Below the pieces are notes generated by a model. The model had not been told where the DNA came from, did no database searches, and worked only from the letters and a program-made list of their open reading frames with translations. A program made the position numbers and the translations under genes. DNA of 60,625 nt, filler included, from Hausera hauseri (Eukaryota): the NCBI GenBank assembly GCA_046269625.1. It is 12 parts of 12 records of this genome, joined end to end, with 100 filler letters (N's around TTAATTAATTAA, not from the genome) between each part and the next. Parts side by side here need not be neighbours in the genome. Positions count along the whole stretch, not along the records: positions 52,539 to 60,625 come from JBJURY010784312.1; 11 more parts are not named here. One strand, 5' to 3'. The stretch's first letter is position 1; every line of letters starts with the position of its first letter. Below are positions 2,706 to 60,625 of the stretch, in pieces.

Positions 2706-4028
2706 AAGGCGAATGCCTGAACCTAATATTTCTAGCGTATCATTTATAGTTTTCGGAACTTTTGTGAATTGCTTTGAATTTATGTCCGTCTGCTGGTTAC
2801 ATTTCCGCAGCCATTCTATATTTCTGATTAACGTCGTACCATTATCCCTTTCTAACGTATAAGTTCTGTCGTGGCGTTTCTCTATTCAGTGAATTTTCCC
2901 AACAGTCTCGACGTGAAGTTGGTGGGGCGTGTACCATTCTTTACTTACCTTCCTGCCAAAGACAACTTCTTTTGGGCTTACCCCAATTGCACTTTCACGG
3001 ACTAGAAGAACCCAGTTGCTTTTCCGGCCATCTGACAGCGTAGCGCCTATGCATTCCCTTATTGTTCTGAACTGCCTCTCGACCATTACATTTGCTGAGT
3101 AATGGTAAGGACTTGAAAACCGGAGCGTCATGTTGTGTGTCTTGGCAAACGTTTTCATGCTTTTTGAAGTAAATGTCTTCCCGCAGTCAAGGTATACTAT
3201 TCGGGGAGCACCAAATTTCAGGATCCATTTCTTTTCTAGTACTTCTAACGTTGTGGCCTCATCCTGCTTAGCGACGGCTGTTAGTGATACGTATTTCCTG
3301 AAATGATCCACGATCGCTAGTATATGTCTGATTTCTAAATGGTGGGTCGAAAGGCTCACAGAAGTCCAAATATGCCTTCCGTCTTTTGTGCAATAATAGG
3401 TGCCTTCGTCTTTGAGGTTAACGTTTTCATTATCTGGCAGCTCTTGCATCTTTGTATCACTGCTTCGAACGCTGTGGTGAAACTACCCATATCAAAAGTG
3501 TCTTTCAGTTATCTGTACGTCTTCTTGCCCCCCGAGTGACACAAAGACTTGTGCATCTCTTAGATAAACTTTTCTCTTCGCTTGTTGGGTATCCATATTT
3601 TACCTTCGAGTGTGACAAACCGGTTGTCCTTTATTTTGTAGTTGGTATCCCTGCCATCGGCAATGTCTTCTTTGATACGGTGTATTTCGTCATAGTTCGT
3701 TCGCCAGATGAAGTCGCCTAGATTTGAGAGTACATACGAGACTTGCTTTTATTTTCCCTTTCTTCTCATCCTCGTGAGTCAACTTGCATTGGACGCATTC
3801 GCTACATTCGTTCCTTGACATTGTATCCGCATTTCCGTGGAGTATGCCTTTCCTATACTCCATCTTGATATCCAGATTGCTCAGGAAGTTAATCCACATC
3901 TGAAATTGTGGGGTGATTGCCTTCTTCGTTCTCAGCTTAAAGGTAATGGCTTTGTGGTCGGTTCGGAGTGTAAATCGTCTGCCGTACAGGTAGTGTTTGA
4001 AATGTTGGCAAAAGTAATATATTGCCAG
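2706..4028 (-). pseudogene. Ty3/Gypsy pol remnant (RNase H end, integrase zinc-binding region and core)
   Basis: WINFLSNLDIKMEYRKGILHGNADTMSR; ILAIVDHFRKYV; WILKFGAPRIVYLDCGKTF; SPYHYSANVMVERQFRTI. Confidence 0.9.
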
Positions 4029-13504: not shown

Positions 13505-14040
13505 GAAAGGGGCATATTTTGCTGTTAAGGGTATGTTTCTCAAGAATGCGAACGGTGGGTAGGTCGTGTTCTTCGTGTTTAGGGGAATGTAAGTGGGTAT
13601 TTTCTATTAAGGGCGTGTTTCTTATGGTTGCGGGCGTGGTTTAGGTCGTGTTTAGAGGCACGTAAGTGGGTATTTTCTGTTAAGAGCATGTTTCTCTAGG
13701 ATGCGGGAGTGGTTTCAGGGTCTTCTTCGTGTCTAGGGACAGGGCAGGGCATATTTTTGTGGTCAAAGTCAAGCAGAAGAGCACGGAATGGGAGTCATGT
13801 GATGTCAGAAGGTGAAGTCAAGATGGTGGTTGTATGGCCCACGTGGGCAAAGTAAAGCGGAACAGGGCGGAACAGGAAGTGAGGTCATGTGACAACAGAA
13901 GGTAAAGTCAGAGGACAGAGTTAGACAGAAGCAAGATGGCGATTGCGTGGTCTACATGGGCAAAGTGAAGCAGAACAGGGTGGAACAGGAAGCGGGGTCA
14001 TGTGACAGCAGAAGGTGAAGTCAAGATGGCCACTGAAGTG
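13505..14040 (+). repeat. Two sets of degenerate tandem repeats (~85 bp and ~100 bp units)
   Basis: AAGTGGGTATTTTCT(A/G)TTAAG..TGTTTC and GTCATGTGA..CAGAAGGT(G/A)AAGTCA each recur about three times. Confidence 0.75.
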
Positions 14041-23399: not shown

Positions 23400-24870
23400 T
23401 CAAGGCAGAAAATTGGGGCCTGCCTGTGTCCGACGCGCCGGTAGCGGAACACCTGGCCGTGCCCAATTGAATGGGCCGGAGGGCGACGATCGGTTCGGGC
23501 ACCACATCACCCCCCTTCGTGACAAAGATGAAACTATAAAGAATAAAAGATAGAGACAAAAAGTCGCAAAACGAAGGGTGTCAGCTGAGCTTAGTGTGAA
23601 TAAGACATTGGGTACCTTCGACTGATTTTTCCCTTCTATAATTGCTGAATGTGACTCTGTGTGTTGTGTTTGTGCGATGTTTTTGTTTGCAGAGATTGAG
23701 GTTGGGGAAAAAATTGTTAGATTTTGGTGTAGGTGTTGTGTCGTGCGAAAATCCGTAGGAATAAAGAGAAGAAGAGGATGAAGAAGGGAGAGTGATTGTT
23801 GAAGACGGATGTTTAAAGGCATTGAAAAGTACTAGAAGAAGGAGTGATGAAAGGTGTAGTGGCGGATAAAGGAAGAGAAGAAAAGGTTGGAGTATAGATT
23901 GGAGTTGTGCTGAGTGAAACAGTGGAAGAGGAAGATGATATAGAAGGAGTGGTAGGAATAGAAGTCGAAAGTGTAGAAAGTGATGGAGCAAGACTAGGCG
24001 CAGAAGTGGAAGGTGGAAATGGTGTAGCAATAGATATAGTGATAGCAGGGGGTGAAGGAGTAAGAAAAGAGGTTTACGTGTCGGTTGGTAAGGTGTCGTC
24101 GACAAAGAAAGTGGGCTTTAGGTTGGTAATGTGTACTGTGAGGTCTTTGCCGTCTTTACAAATAATGGCGTTGTGTGAGTGTAGCTGTATCAGTTTATAG
24201 GGCCCCAGGTACCGCGTCTGTAAACCACAGGGCGCTTGATTCTTCAGCCATACGAATTTCGCCGAATACAAATCTTCGGGTAAATATGCTTTGTCTTTGT
24301 AAAATATCCTGCAGAACGAATCTTTGCTGACCTCGACGAAGAAGTTTTGCGCCGCCCGTATCGCCTCATCCTTGGGAGTGTCGTCTAGGGCGGTTAGTTA
24401 GAATAATGATCGGGCAGGTGCTCCGAATAAAGCTTCAGTAGGTGAATATCCTGTAGAAGTGGACGGAGTGTTCCGCCAGCCGAGCAGAACGAACGGAAGA
24501 AGATTCGTCCAGCTAGTGTTGGACTCTACGAGAATTCTTAGTGACGTTTTCAGTGTTCGGTGGAAACGTTCTAGAAGGCCATTCGATTGGGAGTGATGAG
24601 GCGTAGTATGAATGTGGCGGATTCCCAATCGATTAACAAGGGATTTGAAGAGGTTGTATTCAAACTGTGGACCCTGGTCCGTGATGATGAAGCGAGGTGG
24701 TCCAAATCTGCTAATCCATGTACGAATGAAAACGTCAGCTATAGTGTCGGTGTTTGTGCTCTGCAGAGTGATGGCTTCTGGCCATCGCGAGGAACGGTCC
24801 ATCATGGTGAGGATGAATTGATGTCCGTTGTCTGGAGGAAGAGGGCCAACGATGTCGATATGCACGGATT
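23400..24870 (-). mobile_element. Ty3/Gypsy (CsRN1/Kabuki-like) 3' end: integrase, low-complexity tail, PPT and start of 3' LTR
   Basis: HIDIVGPLP..DRSSRWPEA..WISRFGPP..TDQGPQF..SNGLLERFHRTLK; GPY motif (YLGPYK); PPT GAAGGGGGGTGA followed by TGTGG starting at 23506. Confidence 0.9.
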
Positions 24871-33197: not shown

Positions 33198-33996
33198 TGT
33201 CCGAATACNNNNNNNNNNNNNNNNNNNNNNNNNNNNNNNNNNNNNNNNNNNNTTAATTAATTAANNNNNNNNNNNNNNNNNNNNNNNNNNNNNNNNNNNN
33301 NNNNNNNNAAAGTAATGAAAATTTGTAAAAGTTCAAAATTCCTAAACGTAGTTGGGGAGATATGAACAAATACAAAATGTTGTTACATTTAAAATCTTGA
33401 AATGCGTTATTTTGGCTTTCTTGACAAATGTTTTAATTAATATTATTAATCAGCATTATATTTTGCACTTTTCTCATTATTTGTTATAAAAACCCAGATT
33501 TACAATAAAATTTGTTTCCTTGTTAGAATATTTCTGAAACCACGACCGCTCAGCCAAGGACTCTGAGGATCTTCTGTATGGAGAAGTTATTATAATAACC
33601 GTCATTTATAATCGATATTGAAACGAATTTGTATCGAAATAGAACGTCCCGCGCGCTTGATAGAATTTTCAAGTCAAAAGCTGACGATGAAATACAGTTG
33701 AGTATACTCGCTAATCATGCCAAATCGAGGATCGATAAATTGCTCAATGAATTTTAATGCGTCATGGTGAGCGGCATTTGTAAACTCTCGATTTTCTATT
33801 TAAATTGTGTACTTAAACAAAATAAATTCGAATTTTAATTTTTGAATTTTTCCAAACACGTGTTTGTCAAATGGTGAAACCGTAAATTGTTCCATTTGAC
33901 TTTGTAAGAAAACCATGCACTCATATTGCAATTTTCCATATATTATTATTCAGCATTGCGATTGGATTATTTACATGAAAAGCCCTGATTAGTAGC

Positions 33997-34206
33997 ACAG
34001 GATCATTACAAAGTCCTGCAAGAAAATTTTTGCGCCAGAGTTCGGGTTTAGTGTGATTGTTATGTGATGGTGTGCTTTCATAATTTTATATTGTTCATTA
34101 TCTATATGCAAGGCAATAATATTAATGCACACCAACACATAAGTATCTCACACTAAATCTGAACTTTGGTGCAAAAATTCTGATGCTGAACTTTTAATCA
34201 TCTTGT
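33997..34206. repeat. Fold-back/MITE-like inverted repeat
   Basis: Arm 33997-34075 is an imperfect reverse complement of arm 34127-34206, with a ~50-bp AT-rich spacer. Confidence 0.75.
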
Positions 34207-34419
34207 AAAGTCTCTTCCCTTAGTTTTTTGTTTCTATATTTTATAAATCCATCATTCGTCTGTCTACTTTGCATCGTAATAGAAGAGAAAAGGCGGAAAC
34301 TTTCTATTTTAAATCACATTTTTAATAAAGATGTTATTAGCACTAATAGAGTTATATCAAACCTATTGCACAAAATCCTTCTTTTCTTTTATAACAAGGA
34401 AACGAATTTTACTGTAAAT

Positions 34420-35280
34420 TTTTATTACAGGGGATAAATTGGAATCGCAGAACTATATCACAAAATGATAACGAACGATTGTAAATTAGATATGGAAATC
34501 ATGAGGACAAAATGAGCTCTTATCTACGCTAACCCTGAATTAGCATCACAAATAATTCCTGAGGGAAGGAATTTTCGGTCGAGTTACCGGTGAGAGAAGA
34601 GACGTATCAATCAATGTAGAAGAAAAACTGCATACAAGAACTTCCCGTTATTTATCGGAATACTCCGCGGTTAGCCATGCCGCTTGAAGAGTATTATTAG
34701 ATAATGTGACCGAGCCAACGATCCTTAAGGAACGTAAGGCAAGTTTAGGAAAACCCATGTTTAGACGTAGCGAAACGGATTGGGTAAGTTTGCCAAATGG
34801 AGGCATTACCGCCGCTCCTATTAAGTTAACAGGAACTAACTTCGTAAAAGGAATAACAGACGATAAATTCCAAGACACCTCATCAAAAGGTATTTATAGA
34901 CCAAAAGAAATTGAAGCCTTTAGACAATTTGCTTTTCCGCGACAACGGACACGAATTAAATCGAGTCATGGCCTCCGTAGTAGATGATACTCAATACCAA
35001 TCCAAATTTGGAATCCTTGCTCGGAGTAAACCATTACCATCGAGTAACCACGGAAATACTTGAAAATTTTGGGAAGATTTTTAATTTTTGTACAGGCTGC
35101 ATCTGGATTTCTAGCGATATACTTAATCCAACTAATTAAGGCAGTCATCCCAGCAGTAATAAATGGATATGAAATATTTACGTTGACTGGATTTTCATGT
35201 AAAATTTTGACCTCGATTATCACACCCTTCGGAAAGTTTTTAAAGGCATATGAAGAAAGCAGATGGAAATCGGATGTAGA
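34420..35280 (+). pseudogene. Chuvirus-like glycoprotein, C-terminal half with TM region (copy H)
   Basis: IAELYHKMITNDCKLDMEIMRTK..PMFRRSETDWVSL..KGIYRPKEIEAFRQF..GRFLIFVQAASGFLAIYLIQLIKAVIPAVINGY. Confidence 0.8.
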
Positions 35281-35904
35281 ACGTCATGTTGGCTATCATA
35301 ATCGTAAACGAAAAGGAAGACCGATGTTTTTGTACAAGCGGAAGCTCACCAAACCTAAAACACGAAATAATTCGGATGATGACGAGCCGAAGGGAGGAGA
35401 AGCCCTTTTAAGAACGGACAGACATAAGATGTATTTCATCTTAAAGGCACCATCGCCTGTTACCCCCTTCCGCTCCAGTCTATGAAGACTGTGATAAGAG
35501 ATTAATGAGTTTGTATCAAACAGAAATCTATAAGAGAACGATTAGTCTAGAAGACCCTTATGAAGGGATGAAACAATATGGAATCTTATGGAAATTGTGC
35601 TATCGACAGTCTATAGACGAACCTAGAATTTTGTACTCCAAGAGAACCTCTAGAGACTAGAGCACTTGTCTGGGGAAATCAAAGATTACAGACTGTCCGG
35701 AATGTAGAACCACACACTAATAACCGAGAACCACTAATTAGTACTCATGAGTTAGAAGAGTCCAGCCTCCAAAACAACGAATTATACCCAAATGGAGAAT
35801 TAAGACAATTATCGGAAAACTTGGTGTCCTCTTCGGAAATCAGGATAAAACGGTCATAAAATATCGACAATCAGACGCCCGAAAGCTGAATCGAATTGTT
35901 TCAG

Positions 35905-36260
35905 AACAGTAATAGAAGGAAGACCCTTCGCCAAAATCACTATTGAAGATTGGAAAGTTTATGCTCTAATCGACACAGGCTCCGAAATGTCTTACATCAA
36001 AAATGACTCAATTCCTCAAACGTTAAGAGGACAGTTGTATCCACCATCAAAAAAAGATCCTGTAAGCACAGGAGCTTTCGGTCAAATGTTGAAACCGATG
36101 TTTAAATGGAACCCCGAAATTCGAATAGTTGGACAGTTTTTCCGTCACGAATTTGCAATTTGTAGTTCTAGGCTGCGACCTATTGAAAAAACTACCAAAT
36201 ATAGCAATAGATTTGCAAACTGGAAAACTAAGAGATTAGGCCAAATAAAGGCGTAAAAAC
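35905..36260 (+). pseudogene. Retropepsin aspartic protease (copy H)
   Basis: IEGRPFAKITIEDWKVYALIDTGSEMSYIK. Confidence 0.9.
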
Positions 36261-36699
36261 ACCTAAAGTCAGGAAATTTGGAGAAGTGTGGATCCCAGTA
36301 GACGAAAACATTCCAGCAATAACAGAAGTAATAATCTACGTGCAAATTCAACAAGATGACCAACCAGTATATTTTGAACCAAAGGAAGCGTTGAATCCGA
36401 TCAGAATAGCAAATAATGCACGGACCCTGGTCAAGTTACACGCTTATACTACTTTAGGAAATACTTATGGAGTATCGTCTATAACTATTGAAGAAAACCC
36501 TATAAATATGCTGAATTTCCACCTTATGTTGAAACCAAGTTTTCACTTGAATCTTATTGTCCATTCTATGAATTATGCCGTTATAAATTAATTATTGCCA
36601 AAGACGATGATGATATTGGTAGAGCTAGAGCTCTAAAACTGACTATTCCACTTAAAAAGCCCGGTTCAAACGAAGAAATAGATTATGAAGGTCAGAAGA

Positions 36700-37320
36700 T
36701 GCCGAAATGGTATCCTCCACCCCATTCACTGAGACCCGAGATAACAAGGGGTTGAACGAATGCTTAAAGCAGATATAATTAGGCCCAGCTATAGACCTTG
36801 GTACTCGCTAATCCTTATGTTTAAAAAGAAAGGTACTACAAAACATTGCTTTTGTATTGATTACAGAGCGCTGAATAATCTTATGATGAAAGATTCTTTC
36901 CCATTACCATCAGTAAAAGAAGCTCTAGATAGGCTTTCAGGAGCAATATGGTTTACTACTCTGGATTTACAATCCGGATATTGGCAAGTGGAAATTGAGG
37001 ATAAAGACCGCTATAAAACAGCGTTTAAGACGCACGATGGCGTTTATGAATTTAATGTTATGCCGTTTGGTATTACTACCGGACCAGCTATTTTTACAAG
37101 GATGATGAATAAAATGTTAATGGGACAAGACCACGCTTTAGCATACTTAGACGATGTAATGATAACATTCACGACAGAAGGATATTTAAAAGATATCGAG
37201 CACACATTAATGCGATTGGAACAAGCAAGGCTAAAATTAAACCCAAAGATATGCAAATTGGCTCAAAACGCAGTATTGTACCTTGGCCATATAGTTGGAG
37301 AATGAGGGTCGAAACCAGAC
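36700..37320 (+). pseudogene. Ty3/Gypsy reverse transcriptase (copy H)
   Basis: FCIDYRALN, KDSFPLP, FTTLDLQSGYWQV, KTAF, MPFG, YLDD (37144-37155), YLGH. Confidence 0.97.
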
Positions 37321-37329
37321 AAGCCGTTG

Positions 37330-37940
37330 TTGAACAAGATGTCAGATTGCATGAAGCTGCAAAATTAGAAAGAGCTAAGACACTGGCTAAGTTTATGTGA
37401 ATATTACGCCACTTATGTGCCAGACAACTCGAAAATAAATGCACCTTTATATCGTCTGCTTAAGAAAGGAATTAAATGGAAATGGACCGATGTCGAACAG
37501 AAAGCTTTCGACGAAATTAAGAAAGTCTTAACAAGCGAACCAGTTTTACGATACCCAGACTTTAACTTGTCATTTATAATCAAGACAGATGTCAGTAAGG
37601 AAGGTATCGGATATGAATTAGCTCAACAACGAGATGAAGAATTGGAACATCCAATTGCATATGAAGGACTTTACTTGAAGAAAGCCGAGAAGAATTATTC
37701 TGTTACGGAATTAGAAACTTTAGCCGTTAAAGAAGCACTTCAACATTTTAACGTTTGTGTATCGGCAGAAAATCATAATTGTGTCGGATCATAAAGCTGT
37801 CACGACTTTACCGGGACGAGCAAACAATCCCACATGCAGACTTGACAGATGGATTGAAGAATTCTTTAGATATAATATTGAATTTCAGTATAAGCCTGGA
37901 GACAAACAACTAGATGCGGATGCACTATCGAGATTAAAAA
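37330..37940 (+). pseudogene. RT connection and RNase H (copy H)
   Basis: PVLRYPDF..IKTDVSKEGIG..NYSVTELETLAV..SDHKAV..YKPGDKQLDADALSR. Confidence 0.95.
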
Positions 37941-38189
37941 CTAAGACAAGTGCAATTACGGTAATGAAGAAAGCTCAGCTTGATGAATTAATAGATCGCC
38001 AACGCGCTTTAACGTTGGACAAAGCAATGAAAATCTCAACCGAACAGAAAAGGGATAAAGTCATCCAGCAGATTATAGAATTTTCTAAAAGGGACACAAT
38101 ACGGAAGGGACGACAATTAAAGAAGCACCTACAGAGAGACGGACACAGATATTGTGTCTTGAATGATAAAGGCCGCGAAGGCATTTTAT

Positions 38190-38990
38190 ATTATGAACGA
38201 AAAGGAAGAAAACTGATAGTCATTCCAAAAGGCTTACGAACCGAAGTTTTAATGGCAGAACACGATTCATATTTAGCAGGGCATGCCATAGAAGAACACT
38301 GGAAAGAATATTGAATAAATACTTTTGGCCCAGCATCTATATTGATGTAAAGAATTGGGTAAGTGTTTGTGAAGTATGCGTAACCAAACAGAAGACAAAA
38401 ACTACATAGCAGAATTAAAACCAATCAACGTACCAGACAGACCCATGCAAGCCACGTCAATGGATATCGTAGGACCGCTACCCACGACCCACAAAAATAA
38501 TAAATATATCTTGACTTGTATTGATCGACAAACTCATTTTGTCGAGTTAGTAGAGCTAACCGATCAAAAGGCAGAAGCTGTGGTAAGAATAATTTGTTGA
38601 TATGGGCCCCCAGATCAAATACTGACAGATCGAGGAAGAAATTTTACAAGTGAACTATTTGAAAAGATTTCTAAAATATTTGAAATTGAACAGTTAGCTA
38701 CTACCGCATACCACCCTCAATGTAATGGAATGGTTGAGTCAATGAATGCAACTGTTATACGCATATTATCAACAGTAGTAGCCAAGGACTAAAAAGATTG
38801 GGATGAATCTTTAGAAAGAATTCAATTTGCCATTAATCTCACACAACATCCGGCAACAGGATTTACACAATTCTTCATGATGTATGGACGAGAAGCTGTG
38901 TTACCCACAGACTTAGGAATGACGCCATACACGACAAACCCCGAAAATTTAGAGCAAAACTTCGCAGAAGTGTTACAGACGTGACTACAG
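38190..38990 (+). pseudogene. Integrase (HHCC and DDE core; copy H)
   Basis: HDSYLAGH..CEVC..SMDIVGPLP..YILTCID..LTDRGRNFTS..TAYHPQCNGMVE..YGRE. Confidence 0.95.
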
Positions 38991-39467
38991 AAATATTGGT
39001 GTGAGGATATAATTGAGAACAGAAATTCTAAATTTAAATTAGAAACATTTTTAAATTTAAATTAAAAATTTGATTTAAAAGTAATATTAAAAGTCTGATT
39101 TAAATTTGGGAAATTTGTTTCCAAATAAATATCTTGAATTATAATAAAAATTTTCAACAACTGTTGTTCCTTTTCAATGAGCAATTACAAACGATCAAAT
39201 TCTGATTTAGCGGTTAGACCAGTGGGCGGGGATTTTCCAACCCTACCCAAGCTGGGCGACGAGGTGGACGGCGTGGATGCGAACGCGGCCAACAGTCCTA
39301 ATGTGTATGAAATGGTTTATTAAAGTCGATACAGTACAAGGCAGAAAGTTAAAAAAGTTCTGTAATTNNNNNNNNNNNNNNNNNNNNNNNNNNNNNNNNN
39401 NNNNNNNNNNNTTAATTAATTAANNNNNNNNNNNNNNNNNNNNNNNNNNNNNNNNNNNNNNNNNNNN

Positions 39468-40075
39468 AAAGTACAGGCGCCATATTGAATATGGCACTTC
39501 TGGTTTTCGGTATATGTTTTCGTAATACTATGGAACATCATCTTTTGGTTCCTCATTTTTGTTTCATAGAAATCGACCACTACTATTCCTGATTCTCTTC
39601 CTTTTCCCGTACCGTACTCACCTCCTTTACGATATCCGGTATGCATATCCAGTTTCCCAATTGCTACTTTATATACTCGAATTATTTTTCCTTGCTGAGC
39701 TTCTAGCTCCGTTCCATCCCATCTCAATCTTCCGGTTTCTTTTGCTTGTTTACACTGTTATCGATCTAAATCCATGGGGATTAATGGAGTCGTCGGTTTT
39801 ACTATCGACGAGTGTCCGTGCATGTTTCCGCAGTGGAAAATACTCTGCAACCGTTGCAGCATGCACTCTGTTCCATCTATTGCAATTAATTCACGCTGCT
39901 GATATAGAAAATACTTTTATCTATAGTTACTAACTGGTGAGGTCGGGCATCTTTGCATAATTCCAAATCCACCAAGGAATATCTTTGTTCAATTTTAAAC
40001 TAATCGCAGTCATATACTGTAATTGCACCGAGCTGTCTTATTAACATCATAAGTGTTATTAATTTGATCATCCAG
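39468..40075 (-). pseudogene. Chuvirus-like glycoprotein N-terminus with signal-like segment (copy I)
   Basis: WMIKLITLMMLIRQLGAITVYDCD*FKIEQRYSLVDLELCKDARPH..FHCG..GHSS..GKLDMHTGY..GGEYGTG..VVVDFYET. Confidence 0.8.
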
Positions 40076-43000
40076 TTTGATTCGTTATCTCGCGCTGCGT
40101 TAGCTGATGTTAGATTTCTTACCATATTTTCAATTCTAGAGGTCGGTCTGTTTCCATCTTCGTCGTCAAATAACTTGGACCAATTTATCTCTGGGTATTC
40201 TCTTAGCAGCTTTTCTGATCAATCCAATGGTCCTATTGAATTTATTTTCCTTTAGAGGGTTTTTTTGATTGCCAAGTACAATATTACTTTCCTTAATTCT
40301 TCGTTAATATTCTCTACCATAATTTTCTCGATTAAAACTTCGTCAGATAAGTTGTTTTCGTTCATTTTGAACCGAAATGTTCTCATTATCCTTGCAGCAT
40401 CATATATTGCTTTTTCCTGTTTATCTAGCATCTCGTTTCTCGGTCCTGAATAGTTCACTATTTTGATAATGTATTTCAGTAGCTCGTTTAACACTTCGCT
40501 ATCGGAGTTAATCGCGGGCATGGATAATTGCCTTAGTTCTCTTATCAGAGCTGCATTTTGGTCAATATCATCTCTTATTTTTCTCGGCTTTCCAACTGAT
40601 TGTTTCTGTTTCTGCGCAGTTCGTGTTGCTTCACCAATCGGTACTAAATTTTTATCGTATTGTTCCTTATCTTTCTCACTCTGGAGGTAGTCAAAATACA
40701 TGACGGGTCTCTGACTTCCATAATGTGTCCTACGCAATGTTCATCTCTCGCTTTCCTTATAGCCTTAACGTTTGTTTTTTCGTCGGTAATTATAGCCACT
40801 ATTCGATTTGTTTCTTCTGGAATAATTCCGACATCTATTAGTAGCTCAGGTTCGTCCAGGATTCGACCTCGGAAATACAATCGGTTTTACTTCTCTAACC
40901 GTTGTTATCGTTTTACATTCAATTTCTCTCTCTTCCATCCAATCGGCTGATATTTTTACCTTGATCGTCGTTTCGGTTTTTGTCTTTAAGAAATCAGTGT
41001 ATTTCTTTATTAATAGCCGGGGCACGGAGTTGTAGACGACATTTTCACTTGATAATTTAGTCAATGTAGGAATCAACTGCCTCAATATGGTTTCGGTCAT
41101 GCTAACGTTAATGTATTCTATTAATTCTCTCTCGGCTAGTGCGGGATTTAATAGCATTCCCGCATTAAATCGCTGGTCGATTGGAAAGGTATCCATTGGT
41201 TGAAGTTGGATGTGCGTCTTGTGATTTTGGTTGTACAAATTTTCTAAATAAGCATCCCATCCTGAGTCATTTGTATCATCCGGAAGTCCATAATCTAACA
41301 ACACTGTAGGCGCGCTTGGCGCATTTTCACGGATTTCGTTCAACCTCGGCTGTACTTCCTTCATCAAGTTAGTGCGAAATTCTACTCCGTTTCCACACGC
41401 AAGTTGTATCGCTTTTTAGTGTTGGTTCTAATTCCTCTGCAGGAAATAACCCTTTTCTTTCATAATTCGTTAATTCGGTCGTCACATCCGTTAACCACCT
41501 TTGTACGAATTCTCTTTTATTCGTTAACTCTGATTGCGTGATGTTATATTTATTCGTATAAGCCTCAAATTCTTTGCCTAATTCATCTAGCTTCGTAGCT
41601 CTTTGCTTTGTGCGAATTCGCAATTTTTTTATTTCTTTGACCTGAGTTGTCAATTGTCGTGTCTTGTCGTCATGTATTTCTGCCATTGTCGATAGTAGTG
41701 ATATTATTTCGTGCATTTCTTTTAGAGTTCTCGAATCGGGATCTATTTCTTCGATCAGTCTTTTTACGAATTTAGCTTCGTCGACTGTTAGGCGATGACC
41801 TTTGATTACATGTATTAATTCAGCGTGACAATTCTGGTCGGTATCTGATGCTCACTCAAAAGGACGATGTAGATATTTAAGTACTTCTTCTAATGCAATC
41901 CGATGATTTAGGCAAATATCCAACGTCGATAGATCACATATTGACATTTCATCTATGGGTCTCGTTACCAGATGTAGTATTCCTTCTATGCGAACGCCTT
42001 TTAGTTTCGTTGATAAGGAGGAGATCCTTTCCTGTTTCGCCTATAATTCAATTTCTTCTATCATGGTGTACAATTCTTCCGTGAGTTTGATTTCCTGATT
42101 TTCGTTCATAATTCTTAGTCTCAATAATGCATTAAATTCAACTCGAAGGTTTGCCTCTATTTTGTAAACATCTAGATTACGCAGTATCTCTTTTAGCTTT
42201 TGTTTTAGCTGTTGTTCATATTCTGAATACTTCCTTAGACGATATTTCGCAAAATCAACTAATCTGTCTAATAGTTAAATCCATTCTTTGAGTTTGTTAT
42301 CTATCATTGGTTTCTCATTTATTACATTTTTTAGTCGTTCGTAGGTGTCGTGTAATTTATCATCTGGACCTTTAATATAGCCCGTTACTTTCTTGACGTA
42401 GTTAATTTCCTTCTTGTATTTGACGAATTCTAAAATACATGTTTTCGTGATATTTTGTACTTCTTGATTTTCTACATACTTTATCTTATTCCTACATCTG
42501 TAGATTTTGGAGCGCCTTTTATCCTGTGAGGCTATGCGAATTCCTATATCCCCATATTCCTGTGGTGCGTTGAACGCAATCTAACACATTTCCATTATGA
42601 GAGGAATGTCTACAGGTTCTATGCCTAGTATTGAAAATTCGTTTTCATCCAATTTGTATATTGGTTTATTTTTGAGGTGATAGATTACTGCGATCTCTAT
42701 TTCTACCATTAACCTTTCTAAATTCCGTTTTGTTCGCTTCTGCTTCAGATCCGTCTCTAGAATCCTTAATATTCCTTAGGCAGTCGCCACTTTATTCTTA
42801 ATTTCTAACTCCTGATTATATCATGTGTCGGTGAAGTTGATTCCGTATTTTATCCATAGATCCTATTTTTTCTTCCATTCATCAATCGACTTCTCCATAA
42901 TTCCGTACGTTTGCTCTGGTTCTTTCTTTTTGTTAACATCTTCCTCAAGGTATTGTTTGAATTCTTTGTACATTCTTTCGGCGAATTGCTGTTCTTTTCC

Positions 43001-43300
43001 TGACACATCTACTTGAGTTTTTATACGCCTTAATTCGTCCAGATTGTGACTTATCGTCTCCGTATCTGTTGGTGCGATCCTAATTTTCCAGATTTTTCTG
43101 ATCCTCCACACCTTTCCGTCTGACCTTTTAAGTCGTTCCGTGCCATCAGTCTTACCTTCGCTATCGGGTAATGGACATATCTCATTTATCTCACTGTTCG
43201 CGTCTCCTACTGTTACGCTTGTAGGAGACGTTCTTCTGCCAAGTTTTCAGATTCAGCGTCCAAGTCTACACTGGGTGATACTACTGCTATTTCGACTTCG
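40076..43300 (-). pseudogene. Unknown helical/coiled-coil domain X (copy I)
   Basis: ORF pieces 42863-43111, 41369-41716, 40846-41367, 40644-40880 and 40252-40737 each match copy L (e.g. QRFNAGMLLNP / QRFNVGMLLDP; EELRKVILYLAIK / EELRKVLLYLAIK). Confidence 0.8.
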
Positions 43301-43360
43301 TTCACCTCTTTTGTCTGCGCGAGCTTCTCAGGCACATTTTTCTTGCGAACCATGTTATTA

Positions 43361-43861
43361 TTACCATGTTATTATTATCATTACATCCAAATCTGACGGA
43401 ACTGATTTTTCTGCGGCTCTACGTTCAGTGTCATCCTTTTCCTTGGCCATATTCAAAATTCGCAGTGTACTAATGTAGCTATTTCCTAACTTTTTCAAAG
43501 CAAACGCAAACTGGGTGACTGATTCGCCCTTCTGTTGCGTCCTATTTTGATATACCATCAACTTTTGCTGTGGAGTTACGGTTGGCAGTAATTTCCTATT
43601 TAATTCTCCTACTAATGACGACCAATCTCTCTTTTCTTCGTCCGTCAACTCGGCGTAGGCATCTGCGGCCAAATTCGTCAAATAAAGCGATAATCGTCTA
43701 ATCATCTGACGAGGTTTTAACCCTATGCCTTCGGCGTGAAGTTTATATGTTTTCAAAAATTCATTTAATCCTTCCGGATCACCGTCGTATGCCGGTAAAT
43801 TTAATGATTTGTATGTGAAAATGTCCAGTTTCTGTCTGGCTGTAGTATTATCAGCTGCCAT
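43361..43861 (-). pseudogene. gag: Retrotransposon Gag capsid domain (copy I)
   Basis: LPAYDGDP..LSLYLTNLAADAY..DWSSLVGEL..RTQQKGESVTQFAFALKKL (MHR-like QxxxExVxxF). Confidence 0.88.
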
Positions 43862-44193
43862 TTTATTTGTATTTGCGTCTGTTCTGTTTTCTACTTTACG
43901 TCGGTCGGAACTTTAAAATTTACTTCTTGATCTTGGTCTAATAAACCTGTTAAATTTTCTCGTGACTCGGATAATGTGCGCTTTTCGTCTGAATTTGTTC
44001 ATACTATACTACTGGTTCATCTTATGTTTAAATTTTCCTTACCGTTTAGGTTTAAATGTTCTGATCTACTATGCTTCTCAATATTTGAGTTTCNNNNNNN
44101 NNNNNNNNNNNNNNNNNNNNNNNNNNNNNNNNNNNNNTTAATTAATTAANNNNNNNNNNNNNNNNNNNNNNNNNNNNNNNNNNNNNNNNNNNN

Positions 44194-52538: not shown

Positions 52539-53324
52539 CGTTTTGTAGCGATCTTCCTCCTCTATCTCTACTTGCCAATATCCAGATTGTAAATCGAGCG
52601 TGGTAAACCATTTAGCTCCCGAAAGTGTGTCTAAAGCTTCCTTTACTCATGGTAACGGAAAAGAGTCCTTCATCATGAGTGTATTTAATGCTCAATAGTC
52701 GATACAAAATCGGTGCTTATTGGTGCCTTTTTTCTTAACCATGGGTATAGGAGAATACCAAGATCTGTAGCTTGGCCTTATTATGTCGGCCTTTAACATT
52801 GGTTCAACCTCTTTGGTTATCTCTGGCCTTAATGAGTGTGGCAGAGGATACCATTTCGGCATCTTTTGATCCTCTAGATCTATTTTATCGTTGAAACCGG
52901 GCTTTTTCTTAAGTGGAATCGTTAGTCTTAAAGTTTTGGCTCGGCCAATATTTTCTTCATCTCTCGCGATGATCGAGCTATAGCGACAAAGTAATTCGTA
53001 GAATCGACAGTATGATTCTGGTGAAAATGTAATCTCCACATGGGGTGGAAATTCGAAGCCTTTATACGGTTTCTCCTCGATCGCAATTGATGGCACTCTA
53101 TACGTGTGTCCTAGAGTGGTATTGGCGTACAGTTTGGTTGGAGTGAGCGCATTCCTCGCTATTCTGATTGGCACGCGGCCTGTTAATACTATTGTCAAAA
53201 CATTGCTGAGCACGAGGTTTGGATCGAGCAATTCCTTTGGTTCAAAATATATTGGCTGATCGTCATCCTGATGTATCTGATCATGTATTAGAATTTCTGT
53301 TCTAGATGGTATGGTTTCATCCAC
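52539..53324 (-). pseudogene. PR-RT linker and reverse transcriptase N-terminus (copy L)
   Basis: PKWYPLP..MLKADIIRPS..SPIPMVKKK..RFCIDY..KDSFPLP..FTTLDLQSGYWQV. Confidence 0.95.
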
Positions 53325-53399
53325 TGGAATCCATAATTCTCCAAATTTTCTGTCTTTAGTGGTTTTAACTCGTTTATTGGGCCAAGTTCTATCAACTTG

Positions 53400-53735
53400 C
53401 CTGCACTGAAATCGATTGCTATATTAAGTAGTTGTCTCAATAAGTCACACCCTAACACTACATCATCCGTTAGTTGCTCCATTACTGAAAATTCATGATG
53501 GAAGAATTGTCCCATTATGTAAATTTCTGGTTTCCAACGGAATTTACTTTCCGATGATTGTCCGAAAGCTCCAATGTTTCCTGGATCAGTCGTGGGAGGT
53601 GGATATAATTGTTCCCGTAGGAATTGTGGTATCGAATCACATTTTATCAGTGATATTTCAGACCCTGTATCTATTAGTGCGAAAACTTCCTAACATTCCA
53701 ATTGCATTTTTGCTAAGGGCCTGCCTTCAATTACT
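53400..53735 (-). pseudogene. Retropepsin aspartic protease (copy L)
   Basis: IEGRPLAKMQLEC*EVFALIDTGSEISLIK..DVVLGCDLL. Confidence 0.92.
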
Positions 53736-54399
53736 GTTCCGTAATAACTTAGTGCTGTTTTTGAGTGTCGTATCGTAGACACTTTGTAGCCGTTTATGGT
53801 AACTTCAGTGGTTCCACCTGGCTGCTCGATTACTTGTCTTAACTGTCCAATTGTGTATAGTTCGTTATTCGTGCCATTTGCATTTTCTACTCCTTGGCTT
53901 CTAACTGGCGGCTGAACATCTTGGTTTCGGAGATTGCGTGTCTCACAACTTCTGGTAAATATTGACTGCATTTGGTTTGGTCTAGGTACTCTAGGTGAAT
54001 ATATTATACCGTGATAATCGATCGCGAGGCGACGATGTGGGGCAGACGTTCTTTCCGTTTCGTGGATCTTACGCAATATCCCATAGCGTTTTGCTTCTTC
54101 GTAAGGATCCTCTAAGTTGAACGGTTTCCGATAAACGTCTGCCTGATACGAGCTCATTGATTGTTTCTCTCAATCTTCATATATATGTGCCGTTGGCTGC
54201 AGTATTGGTAATGGCAGTTTCATAACAGAGTAGTTTTTGTGCCTACTTGGCCTAGAGATTACATGTCCTTCCCTAGGCTGGTCATCGTCAAAAATTATTT
54301 CTTCTTGTCTTGCTATCTATGAATTTTTGCCTGTAATCGAATATGCATCTTTTACGTTTTCGATTATGGTAGCCAACATGTCGTTCCACAAGGTTTTCC

Positions 54400-56245
54400 A
54401 TTTACTCTCTTCATAAGCTTTTAAAAATTTGTCGAAGGGCGTAATAATAGCTGTTAAAATCTTGCACGAAAATCCTGTCATGGTGAATATCTCATATCCA
54501 TTTATGATTCCTTGAATTATGGCTTTTATTAGTTGAACTAAAAAGTGTATCGCTAAAAAACCTGACGCGGCCTGCCCGAATATCAGAAATCTTCCCCAAA
54601 TTTTGTATAAAATTTCTCTAGTTACCTTCCTGTAATAGCCAACACCGAGTAATGACTCCCATTTCGCCTGGTAGCGCGAGTCCCCTAGTATCGTATGCAT
54701 CGCTCTGTTTAATTCATATGGACGCTGGCGGGAAAAGCCAGAAATTGTCTAAACGCCTCTACTTCTTTTGGTCGGTAAATACCCTTAGTGGCTGTATCTT
54801 GAAACTTATCATCGGTTATTCCTTTTATCAGGTTTGTACACGTCAGTTTGGTAGGTGGTACGATAATACCGCCGTTCGGTAAACTTACCCAGTCGGTTTC
54901 GCTACGTCTAAACATCGGCTCTCCTAAGCTGGTTTTACAGTCTCTTAAAATTGTCGGTTGAGTGGTATTTGTCAACAACACTCTGGTAATTGGTGTTACT
55001 AATCTCGGTACGTCTTTATATATATCACTGGAAGCTCTTGTATACACCTTTTCGCTTCACATTAATCGGTACGTCTTTCCTCTCGCACTCATACGTCAAT
55101 AAAACCCCTCCTGTTACTCGTCCAAAAACACCTTCCTTCATCGGAATTATTGGCGATGCCAACTCACGATTGGCGTATATTAGAGCTAGTTTAGTTCTCA
55201 TGATTTCCAAATCTAACTTGCAGTCGTTTGTTATCATCTTGTGGCATAACTCGGCTATTTCGGCTTGTCCTTTATAGTAAAAATAGTCGCCTCTGTTCTT
55301 CAAATAGTCTTCAATCCGGATGTCTTGAGTCTCGAGTTTGAACGTTCTGGTGTTTATTTTTGTTTCGGCTGCGAAAAATGCTTCATAATTGGTGGCATTC
55401 ATTACAACGTCGCATCTGCTGAGCATAGCCTTCTTTACAAATTTTAATCCATGAGTATCAGAAATCAGTATCGTAAGTGTGGACTGCTCGGCTATATCAT
55501 CTCGTGTTTTAGAGTTAGTTTCCGTGCTACTTATATATCGTTTCCCTGTCGTCTCATTGAATTTAAGTTCTTTGATTCTGATAAAATTGCAATCAGTCTT
55601 GGCTGGGGTTCCAAATTACCACGGAACTTAGAAGCGGGCATGTGTCATCCTAAACGTGACACTTGTGGTTCTTGGTGTAGAGTTTAGTAACGCTATGAAA
55701 CATCACTTTCTGTATACGTATTTCAGTTTCGTAGAAATCCACTATTACGATGTTCGACTCTAATCCCTTTCCAGTACCGTATTCCGCACCGTAACAATGT
55801 CCGGTATGCATATCCAGTCTTCCTGCTGCTAATTCATAAACTCGAATTATTTTCCCTTGCTGCATTTCCATTTCCATACCGTCCCATTTTATTCCCCCCG
55901 TCTCTCTAGCTTGCTTACAATGCTGTCGCTCTAAATTCATCGGAATCATTAGGGTTGTTGGCTTGATTATTGATGAGTGTCCATGTACCAGTCCACAGTG
56001 GAAAATGTTGCGAGATCGCCGAAACATACATTCTACTCCGTCCAGGTAACTAGTTCGCGTTGTTGATTTAACACAACTTTTCTCTTTTGTTTCTAATCTG
56101 TGGGGCCTCGCATCTTCGCACATGTCCAAGTCCATTAACGAATATTTTTGGCCAAGTCTAAATTTGTCGCAATTATATACTGTGACTGCACCCATTTGTT
56201 TGATTAACGTCATCAAGGTCAAAAGTTTGATTAGCCAGTTTGATT
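54400..56245 (-). pseudogene. env: Chuvirus-like (class III-type) envelope glycoprotein, complete but disrupted (copy L)
   Basis: Signal-like WLIKLLTLMTLIKQMGA, then VYNC..YSLMDLDMC..FHCGLVHGHSSI..AGRLDMHTGHCYGAEY..NDCKLD..GGVLLTYEC..TPITRVL..GIYRPKEVEAFRQFLAFP..TM. The cysteine and motif order matches chuvirus G as I recall it. Confidence 0.82.
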
Positions 56246-59200
56246 AATTTCCTCTCCTATTTCCAGTTACGTTTCATAGCACATCTTCAAATCTATTGCC
56301 ATTTGAGAAGAATTTACTTTGATATTCTTCTTCTTTCCTTAATAACTTCGACCAGTTCACCTCCCGGGGTAGTTTTCTGGCAGCCTTCCTTGCCAAGCTA
56401 GTAGCCTTGTTGAATTCAATTTCCCGGTTTGGGTTAGTTTTGATTGCCAGATATAGTAATACTTTTCTTAATTCTTCTATGGTATTTTCCGTCATAATTC
56501 TATCAATCACCATCTCATCGCTTAAGATACTTCTGGATAATTTACACCGTAAGTTTCTCATGGCTTTGGCTGCATTAAATATAATCCTCTCTTTCTCATC
56601 TAATATATCACCGTCGAGATTAGAGTGGTTTACTGTTTGTATCAAATCCTTCATCAATTCGTTCAGTTCCTCATTATCCGCACTGAAAGTTGGTATAGAC
56701 ATCTGCCTCAACTCCTTAATTAGGTCTCCATTATAGTCGATTTCTTTTCGTATATTCCGTGATCTGCCGACAGGGCGCTTCTTTTTGTTACCGCAGGTAT
56801 ACTGCCGTCTTTTGGTACTAAATTTCTATCGTATTGTTCATTATCTTCGTCTGTCTGCAGGTACTCGAAATATACTGTTGCATCTCGTACTCCTATTATT
56901 CGTCCTACCTGCTTTTCTGCTTTAGCCTTCCTTATAGCCTCTTCCTTTGTTTGGTTTCTAGCGGTAGTTACCACTAATCGGTTTACCTCACCTGGGATAA
57001 TTCCGACTTCTGTTAATAATTCTGACTCATCTAGGATCATTCGTCTGAAATAAAGTCTATAACTCAGCTCATGGGCGTATCCATTAGCCTTTATCTACAG
57101 CAATACATCCTTTACAAAGGAGCAGGTAGTGAACTGTTGCTCCTTTTCCACCATCCAGTCTGATACTATCTTTACTGGGATTATTTCCTCCGCCTTCGTC
57201 TTTAAGATTTTAGCATATTCCTTAAGTAAGAGCTTAGGTACCGTATTAGAAATTGTGCCTTCGCTAGCTAATTTAGTTAAAGTGGGAACTAGACGTCTTA
57301 GTTGATTTTCAGTGAGGTTCATTTTAATTAATTGAATTAATTCTTTCTCGGTTTGTACCGGATCCAGGAGCATTCCTACGTTGAACCTTTGTTTTGGAGA
57401 ATATACCTCCGTTTTATCCGATCGTATTGGAGTTTTTGGATTCTCGGTAATTATTGAGTCAAAATATGCATCCAAATCTGGTTCGTTTTTATCGTCTGGC
57501 AATTGATAATCCCTTGACAGTGCATCGGTTGGCCTGTCCACACTTGCGGTCCATGTAGTTTTCCTGAGTTCTTGTAGTTTTTGTTGCATTTGGACCATTT
57601 TCGTCGTTCGGAAACATCGTCCATTAGCGGACGTTTGGTGGAGCAGTGTTAACAACAAACATAATTCTTCGGGTGAAATGAACCCCTTTTCTTGATATTT
57701 CTTTAGTTCCGACGTGACATTTCTTTGCCATCTTTGAACAAATTGTGACTTGTCAGCCTTTTCTGTTTCTGTAAGGGCGTATTTGTTTTTATAGGCTTTG
57801 CGTTCTCTAGCTAATTCATCTAATTTTATCGCTCTCTGTTTGGTATTAATGCAAGTTTCTTCGACTTGCTGTATTTATACCAACAATTGTCTTAGTTTCT
57901 CGTCACTAATTTCTGCCATTTCCGCCATCAGTAGTGCTAATTCGTACGTCTTGTTAATACTGTTTGAATCTGGATCTTTCGCATCTAATAACTTTTTTAC
58001 AAATTTGATCTCTTCAAAATTGAGGTGGCGGTCGTTCTTTATTTTAATCAGTTCGGTGTGAAGTCTGCTCCGTTCCATCTCTCCATTTTTGGGGACGATG
58101 TAAGAAGTGAACCCCTCTTCAACGACTGATCGGTCTTCGGGACAACAGTCTAAGGTTTCAAGATCTCGGATCGAAATTTCTTCGATAGGTTTGGCTGCAA
58201 GTATCGTATTCCTTTTAAGCGTACATCTCTCAGTCGCGGATAGAAATCACAAGTCGCATTTCGTTTCCGTACGAAATTTGTTTCTACGATCATCATATAT
58301 TTATCATCTAATATCATCATTTCTTGTTTCTTCTCCATAAAGTTCAATTGGCATAATGCCTCAAATTGAGTTCGGATGTCAATTTCTGCTCTTATTGTAT
58401 CTAGATTTCGAGCGTCTTCTTCTAACAGTTTCTTTACCGTAGGTTCGCTCTCCGGAAATTCGCTCTTTCGATTGTTAATCAGTTTACTCAACCTGGTTAT
58501 TACTTTGGTCCATTCGTTCAGTTGATTAGCGATTTCTGGCTTTGCCAATATTGCTTTATCTAACGTTTTGTAAGCGTCTTTTAGCTTATCATCCGGACCT
58601 TTAATGAAATGTATGATCCGGTAGACATAATCAAACTTGTCCTTGTACTTATCAAACTCGAGGATGCAAGCCATAATTATTTTGTGTGTTTCCTCGTTAT
58701 TGGTTTACATAATTCTATACTTTAGACCATATATCTGAGACCGTTTTTCGGTTTCGATCCTAATACGATTTTCCAAACTTGTATATTGCTTTGATGCCGT
58801 CGAAGCGACCTTTATCATTTCCATCAAGGGTGGAGTATCTATGGAATCTATGTCCAACATCCCTAGGTCATTTGCATCTCGTTCATTCATGACACGCTCC
58901 AAATTACGTACGGCTCTTTTCAATTTCGGGTTGGCTTCTAATGTAATTAATAGCGACTAAGCTTAATTGATTTTAGCTTCAATGTCTCGAGTAATTTTAT
59001 CCCACGTCTCTGGGAATTTTGTCTTGCTTTTGCTGCATCGTTCTAGTTCGTGTTTCCACTGAGTTAGTGTTTCCTTTGGCACTTCTTCGGGCTGATCTAA
59101 GTCTATAGCTTCGCTTAGTTTCCTTTCATTATATAATTTCATCTTTTTGTATAATCTTTCTATAAACTGCTGCTCCTTAGCGGAAATATCCACTTGTTCA

Positions 59201-60040
59201 CTCATTACCTTGAGTTTTTCTACGTTCTGTTGAACTGCCTCTGGGTTTAGACAGTCGGTTCTCATCCTTTTTTATTCATTGGCATTTTTCCACGAGCGTC
59301 TGATTTTCCACTTTTTAGGATCGAGTTTCTCTTCTTGTTCTATTTCCTCTTCACTAGTAGGTAAGGGACATATGTCGTTTATCTCATTTATAGATTTAGC
59401 TAGCTCATCCATTTCGCTTGGCGTAACTAAATTAATTTCCGGAACGTTCAAGACGCATTTGGTGTCGCTTTCTAGCGCGATTTTGCTTTCTCTCTTTGTG
59501 CTTTACTTCTCCTGAGTCATAGGGGATTTCGAACGATCCTTGCGTTTTCGTCTCAATGATGGGCTACGGCCTCTATTCTTGGTAATTTTAAGTATAAGTG
59601 GTTCCAGAAGTTCTTCTTTTTCGTCGGCCTCAGCCTCCTTGGTTACTTTTTTATAGTATACTCGGGTTCTACATCTAAATCTACTTCATCCGGGGTCTCA
59701 GGTTTTCCTGTTTCGTCCGACTGCTTGCTTGTCAAAGGAATGTTCTTTTTCCGTGTCATATCAGTAAGGCTTGGTGGAGCGATGGAGTGTTCATATTCCG
59801 TTTCAGGTTCACGCAAGTCATGGTAAACTTCTAATAATCGTAATTTGTGTTCGTACTCGTTTTTAGCCACTAAAACTTTGGGGTCCTTAGTATCGGGCTG
59901 GGCCTTTAAGAAGCATCGTAAATCATGTATCTCGATGATCATACCCGTGTCTCTACGGACACCGTAGATTGCTTCTAAATATTTGTTTTTAATTACACTA
60001 ATTTTACTAGGTTCGACAAACGAAACATTTTGCGGGTTTG
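56246..60040 (-). pseudogene. Unknown helical/coiled-coil domain X, ~1,250 codons (copy L)
   Basis: Chain of co-oriented K/E/L-rich ORF pieces from 59942 down to 56274, homologous to copy I. Confidence 0.8.
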
Positions 60041-60041
60041 G

Positions 60042-60430
60042 ACAGGATCGCGCTATGTTAAATTCGTGTCCACATGTATAACAAATTAGATTACCGTTTT
60101 TTCCGATTCTCTGCCGGCCATCTTCATTTTGTGGGGATTTCGATCTACTCGGATTTCTATTGTAGCCTTGCTACGATGGGGCTTGTTTACAGTCCACATA
60201 CTGGCGGTTATCGTAATTCCGGCTATTATTCTGACGATTAAAATTTTTGGAGCCCTCTAGGCGCCTATCTGTATGATAGTTTGATTTACTAGAGGAACTA
60301 TTACGACTATTATCGAAATTCTAATTACTGTATCGATCGTTTTTGCTATCATAATTCTTGTTTCGATCCCCATAATTCCTGTTAAATCGTCTATCATGAC
60401 TTTATAGATATTTTACGACAGATTGTTTTG
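60042..60430 (-). pseudogene. gag: Gag C-terminus: R/N/S-rich region and zinc knuckle (copy L)
   Basis: CYTCGHEFNIARSC at 60042-60083 (CX2CX4HX4C spacing with H replaced by N), preceded by an RNYDR-type low-complexity stretch. Confidence 0.8.
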
Positions 60431-60625
60431 GGTCGTCTGGATATCGGAAGACAAAAACAGCGACTAAATAAGTATCGAGATGCTCTTGTGAATATGGCTA
60501 AGGCCATGAGTAATGCAGCAAAGAAACGAGCTCTGAAAAATTACTTTCCCGTGGAAAAAATAAAATGGAAAAGAGGGAAAAAGAAAATCGAAAACCAACA
60601 ACAATATTATGCATCGCCAGAAATT

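Follow-up and report, generated by a model that had tools for sequence, protein, structure and literature searches.

A gypsy-like retrotransposon in the Hausera hauseri assembly GCA_046269625.1 has a degenerate zinc knuckle and, further on, a gB-type envelope gene (Env); the two are separated by a coding region of about 1,250–1,260 codons, as measured in the copy that we call L. What this region (X) is made of, and what it did for the element that carried it, are the questions that the locus raises. We analyzed X within a window, the whole stretch of 60,625 nucleotides under study, which consists of 12 separate contigs with N spacers between them. Because the contigs are joined only by these spacers, neighborhood is valid only within a single contig, and we counted adjacency only there.

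Organization of the element and its copies

One element family accounts for three of the contigs: L (52539-60625, minus strand), I (39468-44093, minus strand), and H (33309-39367, plus strand), all of which terminate inside the element. Read along the minus strand, copy L runs from an R/N/S/D-rich stretch through the knuckle, X, a hydrophobic segment, a gB-type Env, a second hydrophobic segment, a linker, a protease, and a spacer to the start of reverse transcriptase (RT). Its features, followed by the two other copies, are given below.

60042..60083, minus strand: degenerate zinc knuckle (C-x2-C-x4-N-x4-C), nucleocapsid-like, after the R/N/S/D-rich stretch
59400..60040, minus strand: N-terminal part of X, about 100 ordered-looking residues and then a charged, proline-rich linker, with a frame change near 59650
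58115..59388, minus strand: first helix-rich block of X, about 420 residues, the least conserved part, with stops and a frame change near 58200
57200..58060, minus strand: middle block of X, predicted helical bundles, 46–48% identical to copy I
56955..57190, minus strand: candidate ubiquitin-like domain of about 80 residues, with one stop in L and partly deleted in I
56277..56950, minus strand: C-terminal part of X, a short conserved strand-containing stretch and then a predicted three-helix bundle before Env
56178..56234, minus strand: hydrophobic segment where X meets Env, 19 residues with a mean hydropathy of 1.48
54520..56177, minus strand: gB-type (class III) envelope glycoprotein, broken, with a C-terminal transmembrane segment near 54560
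53800..54390, minus strand: conserved Env-protease linker, in the same frame as Env and protease in L, with no Pfam match
53426..53794, minus strand: retroviral-type aspartic protease (Pfam RVP, E 4e-06)
52539..53387, minus strand: protease-RT spacer (about 160 residues) and start of RT, cut by the contig end, 70% and 82% identical to copy H
39468-44093, minus strand: copy I, with a capsid-like piece, an apparent internal deletion, X from 43195, and the start of Env
34420-39010, plus strand: element part of copy H, with the C-terminal half of Env, protease, RT, RNase H, and integrase in gypsy order, heavily broken

Env matched the Pfam family PF24664 (Monjiviricetes_fusion) on three pieces (E 5.5e-12, 2.6e-06, and 7.9e-14), and the second hydrophobic segment, near 54560, has a hydropathy of 1.96. 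A gB-type env lies upstream of pol in both copies that span this part of the element: PF24664 precedes RVP in L, and the C-terminal half of Env precedes RT in H. After the protease region that it shares with L, copy H carries matches to RVT_1 (E 5e-29), RT_RNaseH (E 0.008), and rve (E 8e-12). L and H together have the order protease, RT, RNase H, integrase by which Ty3/gypsy LTR retrotransposons are recognized. The hydrophobic segment at 56178..56234 is likely, from its sequence, an internal signal sequence. No canonical CCHC knuckle was found in contigs H, I, or L; the pattern at 60042..60083, without the canonical histidine, is the only knuckle-like one, and we take it as the putative nucleocapsid. 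The capsid-like piece of copy I is so labeled by a motif, and it had no match in Pfam or PDB. At 43195-43400 (minus strand) copy I passes almost straight from this piece into X, without the knuckle and about 200 residues that L has, an apparent internal deletion judging from the sequence.

Two further segments of the element are conserved. The Env-protease segment, about 190 residues that belong to no family (L 53800-54390, minus strand; H 35375-35850, plus strand), is 52% identical between the two copies with a pN/pS of 0.30. The protease-RT spacer (52900-53387, minus strand) is as conserved as Env (70%) and had no Pfam family or PDB match.

The element is a high-copy family. In public run X1, 15,451 of 15.5 million contigs map on copy L at 80% identity or more; they cover 30 of 30 bins of that copy, X included, and some bridge X and Env. 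We read these contigs as evidence of high copy number and not of independent occurrence, because X1 may be the window's own source.

Elsewhere in the window, contig J (44194-48207, plus strand) contains decayed coding sequence in strand-rich frames, together with ankyrin repeats (Pfam, E 2e-12) and a membrane-like stretch that matches DAG1 weakly (E 2e-4); this sequence could be the cargo of another mobile element. Polinton/adintovirus-like fragments occur in contig B (7269-9304, plus strand; weak adenovirus-type protease, E 0.004), contig K (48308-52438, plus strand; protein-primed polymerase B, E 2.5e-5), and contig D, which is related to K. Contigs A (2886-4028, minus strand) and E (24398-24868, minus strand) contain pieces of integrase and RNase H from other families of gypsy type. 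A short frame in contig C (12909-13334, plus strand), which had no Pfam match, presumably resembles the N-terminal domain of chordate fibrillar collagen, so that the window may include contigs from more than one organism; short direct repeats stand beside it (13573-14029).

Past purifying selection on X and the probable polyprotein frame

A first-pass annotation of this DNA had described X, from its sequence, as conserved coding sequence between the nucleocapsid and Env, marked by nine motifs in the same order in L and I. Comparison of the two copies bears this out. Each copy holds eight of the nine motifs as first written, one occurrence apiece and in matching order along the minus strand. 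The remaining motif, YF(E/D)YLQ..YD.NLVP, is present in both only with a longer spacer. With tblastx, I chains to L in order from 59388 to 55638, and one weak match of 22 codons lies further upstream; the first ~215 codons of X (60040-59400) are essentially outside the coverage of copy I. Across the 942 codons of X that could be aligned, L and I have an amino-acid identity of 0.44, with identities of 0.61, 0.71, and 0.39 at codon positions 1, 2, and 3. The corresponding pN is 0.33 and pS 0.83, with synonymous sites saturated, giving a pN/pS of 0.40 (bootstrap 0.36–0.43). All four sub-windows of X have this codon-position pattern, with pN/pS between 0.33 and 0.49, and in the only one of the four that allowed its computation dN/dS is 0.19. 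The ratio is not near 1, the outcome that the first-pass annotation had named as refuting its reading.

As a neutral control we ran 20 simulations at the same overall nucleotide identity as that between L and I. In all 20, amino-acid identity was at most 0.34, versus 0.44 for X, and identity at position 2 exceeded that at position 3 by at most 0.08, versus 0.32 observed. Because the codon-position pattern lies so far outside this control, we conclude that X was under purifying selection while the L and I lineages diverged. X is less conserved (44%) than Env (64–71%) or RT (82%). A third relative, the unnamed protein P0001, matches the middle block at 39% identity (E 8e-13) and was the sole match among 1.84 billion representative proteins; it is a one-member cluster from a 2.2-kb contig. 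That X might be non-coding, neutrally decaying, or an assembly chimera is a reading that the broken state of both copies and the shortness of the contigs would suit, but the codon-position pattern set against the neutral control, the existence of P0001, the same X-Env junction in two independent contigs, and the bridging contigs of run X1 refute it.

Copies L, I, and H are dead, and no intact copy was seen among them. X in L is not open now, being interrupted by seven stops and three frame changes, with two further stops at the Env junction. These breaks are largely private to each copy. Where L changes frame near 58200 and near 56800, copy I reads on without a break, as L does at the frame changes of I, and I also stays open from X into Env. 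The first of L's three frame changes, near 59650, falls outside the coverage of copy I; run X1 contains an indel at 59645 in 10 contigs. A single stop, near 58958, is aligned in L and I. It is absent from 32 contigs of run X1, which make up 2164 of 2195 in depth, and we therefore regard the shared stop as coincidence. Programmed read-through or a true gene end at this position is ruled out, the other copies in the run being overwhelmingly unstopped. Env and protease share one frame in L. With no family-wide break common to the copies, the active element likely encoded a single Gag-X-Env-Pol polyprotein, a conclusion drawn from sequence.

Just after the protease, a frame change is present in both L (53381-53393, minus strand) and H (36230-36241, plus strand), and an indel at 53372 occurs in 14 contigs of run X1. 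The changes in L and H are probably independent decay, though they may mark a programmed shift.

Sequence character and predicted fold of X

Searches for relatives of X returned little. No piece of X from L or I reached the Pfam cut-off, and profile searches of PDB sequences with X pieces gave nothing better than E 0.05. For the first helix-rich block, which is 33–52% identical between L and I, no PDB sequence matched better than E 0.68. A set of 5.8 billion entries yielded no relatives of the middle frame of X, the Env-protease region, or the Env N terminus, which counts as weak evidence. The middle block had no relative in ESM Atlas (best score 0.78), a homolog search of viral contigs was negative, and metagenome contigs gave no match for X or Env. 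The first-pass annotation had named a clear match to a known gag extension or host gene as refuting its reading, and no clear match to either emerged in Pfam, PDB, or, for the middle block, the 1.84 billion proteins.

Below the Pfam cut-off, faint matches appeared to IFT57 (E 0.008), the syntaxin-6 N-terminal domain (E 0.011), and TACC (E 0.024). Such matches to host helical proteins are what one might hope to see if X derived from a single gene taken from the host, encoding a helical rod or tethering-complex protein and kept in frame. They are not the same in L and I, however, and 44% identity between saturated copies implies that relatives of such a gene should exist, whereas only the one unnamed protein among 1.84 billion was found, and this for the middle block. 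We consider capture of a single host gene very improbable.

Structure prediction described X mainly as helices. An AF2 model of the middle 499 residues was of low confidence (mean pLDDT 49.6), with residues 60–230 mostly at 55–82. With VIA-align the middle block matched generic three-helix structures and nothing else (best Z 8.7, rmsd 2.5, 61 aligned), and the model, a weak one, had no Foldseek match in PDB or BFVD at E<=0.001. The C-terminal part of X is 46–58% identical to I and has a frame change near 56800 in L. A model of the 170 residues before Env was a three-helix bundle, again of low confidence (mean pLDDT 46.3). Here the VIA-align matches were generic (best Z 8.9, rmsd 2.7, 85 aligned) and included helices of GAT, spectrin, and capsid spikes, and Foldseek found no match at E<=0.001. 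X contains no membrane segment (maximum hydropathy 0.93), no internal repeats by all-against-all blastp of four pieces, and no catalytic motif that we could see, most of it being predicted as long helical bundle. A heptad signal in the first helix-rich block is present in I (0 of 200 shuffles) and absent in L (59 of 200 shuffles); with the signal in I only, we do not claim a coiled-coil, Smc-like X. On these low-confidence models, X as predicted is a series of helical bundles that match no recognized family or fold, in keeping with its earlier description as helix-rich.

The first-pass annotation had also held that X contains no recognizable motif. As far as families go this stands, the exception being a stretch at 57190-56955 that is weakly ubiquitin-like. 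The pattern was first spotted by eye, after the domain list of the planarian element Burro was known to us. A profile built from L and two pieces of I, run against 177,635 PDB sequences, gave five matches at E<=10, all of them ISG15 (E 1.1–1.4), and these align to both ubiquitin-like halves of ISG15. The AF2 model of the middle 499 residues has, at this place, the order strand, strand, short helix, strand, at low confidence. A single-sequence phmmer search and Pfam were blank for it. With a profile of 102 viral ubiquitins, I's piece ranked second of 1439 at 3.8 bits, below decoys (up to 7.5), and L's piece fell outside the top 12. On sequence profile and model we put the chance that this is a ubiquitin-like domain at slightly better than even. 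A search of the texts of papers found no gypsy LTR retrotransposon gag polyprotein with a ubiquitin-like domain.

An RNA-virus origin for X had also been suggested. Many mononegaviruses carry their N, P, and M genes upstream of G, with a summed length similar to that of X, and the Env of this element is of Monjiviricetes type; X could on this basis be an N-P-M block that entered the element along with the glycoprotein of a mononegavirus or chuvirus and was joined into one frame. Searches of Pfam, PDB, and BFVD lend this no support, the models used being weak: no Pfam viral N, P, or M family appeared at E<=10 or 0.5, and the middle block had no BFVD match at E<=0.001. Mononegaviral matrix proteins are strand-rich, whereas the Env-adjacent domain is predicted, in a low-confidence model, to be all-helical. 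The gB-type Env has been argued to be an ancient retroelement gene (Chary and Hayashi, PMC13524379). We regard capture of such a viral block as very improbable.

Possible role of X and comparison with known elements

Gypsy Gag can lack the membrane-targeting matrix domain of retroviruses, as PMC10309623 states for Cer1, and how capsid and envelope are joined in enveloped gypsy elements is therefore a question. Our working proposal, which we rate as having an even chance of being right, is that X was a cytosolic scaffold within a Gag-X-Env-Pol polyprotein, built of predicted helical bundles and perhaps a ubiquitin-like module, and that it tied Gag to the membrane through the internal signal of Env. 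X would have been translated within one polyprotein and, because it precedes the first hydrophobic segment, would have lain with Gag on the cytosolic side. Judging from hydropathy and general membrane-protein topology, Env would be threaded into the lumen by the hydrophobic segment after X, serving as an internal signal, and the chain would cross back at the second membrane segment, near 54560, so that protease and RT lie in the cytosol. The signal anchor would thereby hold X at the membrane, and Gag would stay attached until cleavage by the protease. Linking a matrix-less capsid to the Env-bearing membrane would be the simplest task for so long a helical X, and the candidate ubiquitin-like module might engage host ubiquitin-binding or budding factors. 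What we observed in this connection is the order of the parts, past purifying selection, high-copy presence, the absence of a shared break, and the lack of a membrane segment in X. A bolder form of the proposal, in which X is a covalent matrix substitute, a helical rod of about 1,250 residues plus a ubiquitin-like module, that keeps a matrix-less gypsy capsid at the membrane by way of Env's signal anchor and recruits budding machinery, in an enveloped lineage separate from Burro, strikes us as unlikely.

Alternatively, X may be a set of host-modulating accessory domains, released by the protease to act on ubiquitin, apoptosis, or antiviral pathways and without a structural role in the particle. 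In Burro/GYPSM1, the same slot holds Smc-like, MATH, SUMO-like, BCL2-like, BIR, and ankyrin domains, the BCL2-like one directly before env (PMC6431247), and the succession in X of a candidate ubiquitin-like stretch and a small helical domain before Env recalls Burro's SUMO-like and then BCL2-like domains. Against this, BIR, MATH, ankyrin, and BCL2 are unmatched in any X piece. For BIR, MATH, and ankyrin, Pfam found nothing in any piece of L or I, though it did find the ankyrins of the unrelated contig J; for BCL2, the 50 top fold matches to the domain before Env include no such protein, though the weak model of this domain leaves BCL2 compatible with the result. The length of the predicted helical bundle and the absence of a visible catalytic motif also sit poorly with accessory functions. 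We think this reading somewhat unlikely, and continue with the cytosolic scaffold.

The closest layout known to us from the literature is that of Burro/GYPSM1 itself. These planarian elements are giant gypsy-like elements of 25–30 kb, present in thousands of copies, with a polyprotein of 4,873–5,140 residues in which Gag and knuckles are followed by cargo, then by an env that is in frame and matches the glycoproteins of mononegaviruses, and finally by protease, a dUTPase-like domain, and RT (PMC6431247). Their cargo places thousands of residues between Gag and env, and the premise that so large an insert after the nucleocapsid has no precedent among gypsy elements is wrong (PMC6431247). The present element shares with Burro a knuckle, a long cargo between knuckle and env (~1,260 codons here), a mononegavirus-type env that is probably in frame, a protease, a conserved spacer, RT, and a high copy number; toward the end of its cargo it may also share a SUMO/ubiquitin-like module, for which X has a weak candidate. 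The present element is smaller, at about 3,700 residues (estimated from L and H), and has one degenerate knuckle versus two or three in Burro. Burro's BIR, MATH, and ankyrin domains were not found in X, nor was there a BCL2 match with the weak pre-Env model. Where Burro has its dUTPase-like domain, between protease and RT, the present element has a conserved spacer of 160 residues with no Pfam or PDB match. Because BIR, MATH, and ankyrin were not found, and counterparts of the BCL2, SUMO-like, and dUTPase-like domains are candidates at most, we do not class the element as a member of Burro. X is a lineage-specific sequence filling a Burro-type cargo slot, in a layout already published and with the cargo compared by domain description.

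Errantiviruses of the order GAG-ENV-POL with an HSV/gB-type ENV have been reported from Nematoda, Bryozoa, and Platyhelminthes, in a search that restricted the gaps between ORFs (PMC13524379). The present element resembles them in its gypsy pol and in a gB-type env placed between gag and pol; the accessible part of that report does not describe what the GAG-ENV interval contains. The [FY]HCG motif of the present Env, compared by eye and without an alignment, occurs in the part of its gB table available to us only in the planarian Smed_errantivirus_5 and _6, which are among the longest flatworm entries listed there.

CERV of the C. elegans element Cer1 is likewise an accessory, family-less protein of a gypsy element; it is encoded after pol, made from a spliced mRNA, and exports RNA, whereas X precedes Env inside a likely polyprotein (PMC10309623). 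If the cargo is the link, elements with the one-protein arrangement Gag-cargo-Env-Pol would give a simple answer to how capsid and envelope are joined, and X, which has no recognizable host domain except possibly a ubiquitin-like one, offers a test case.
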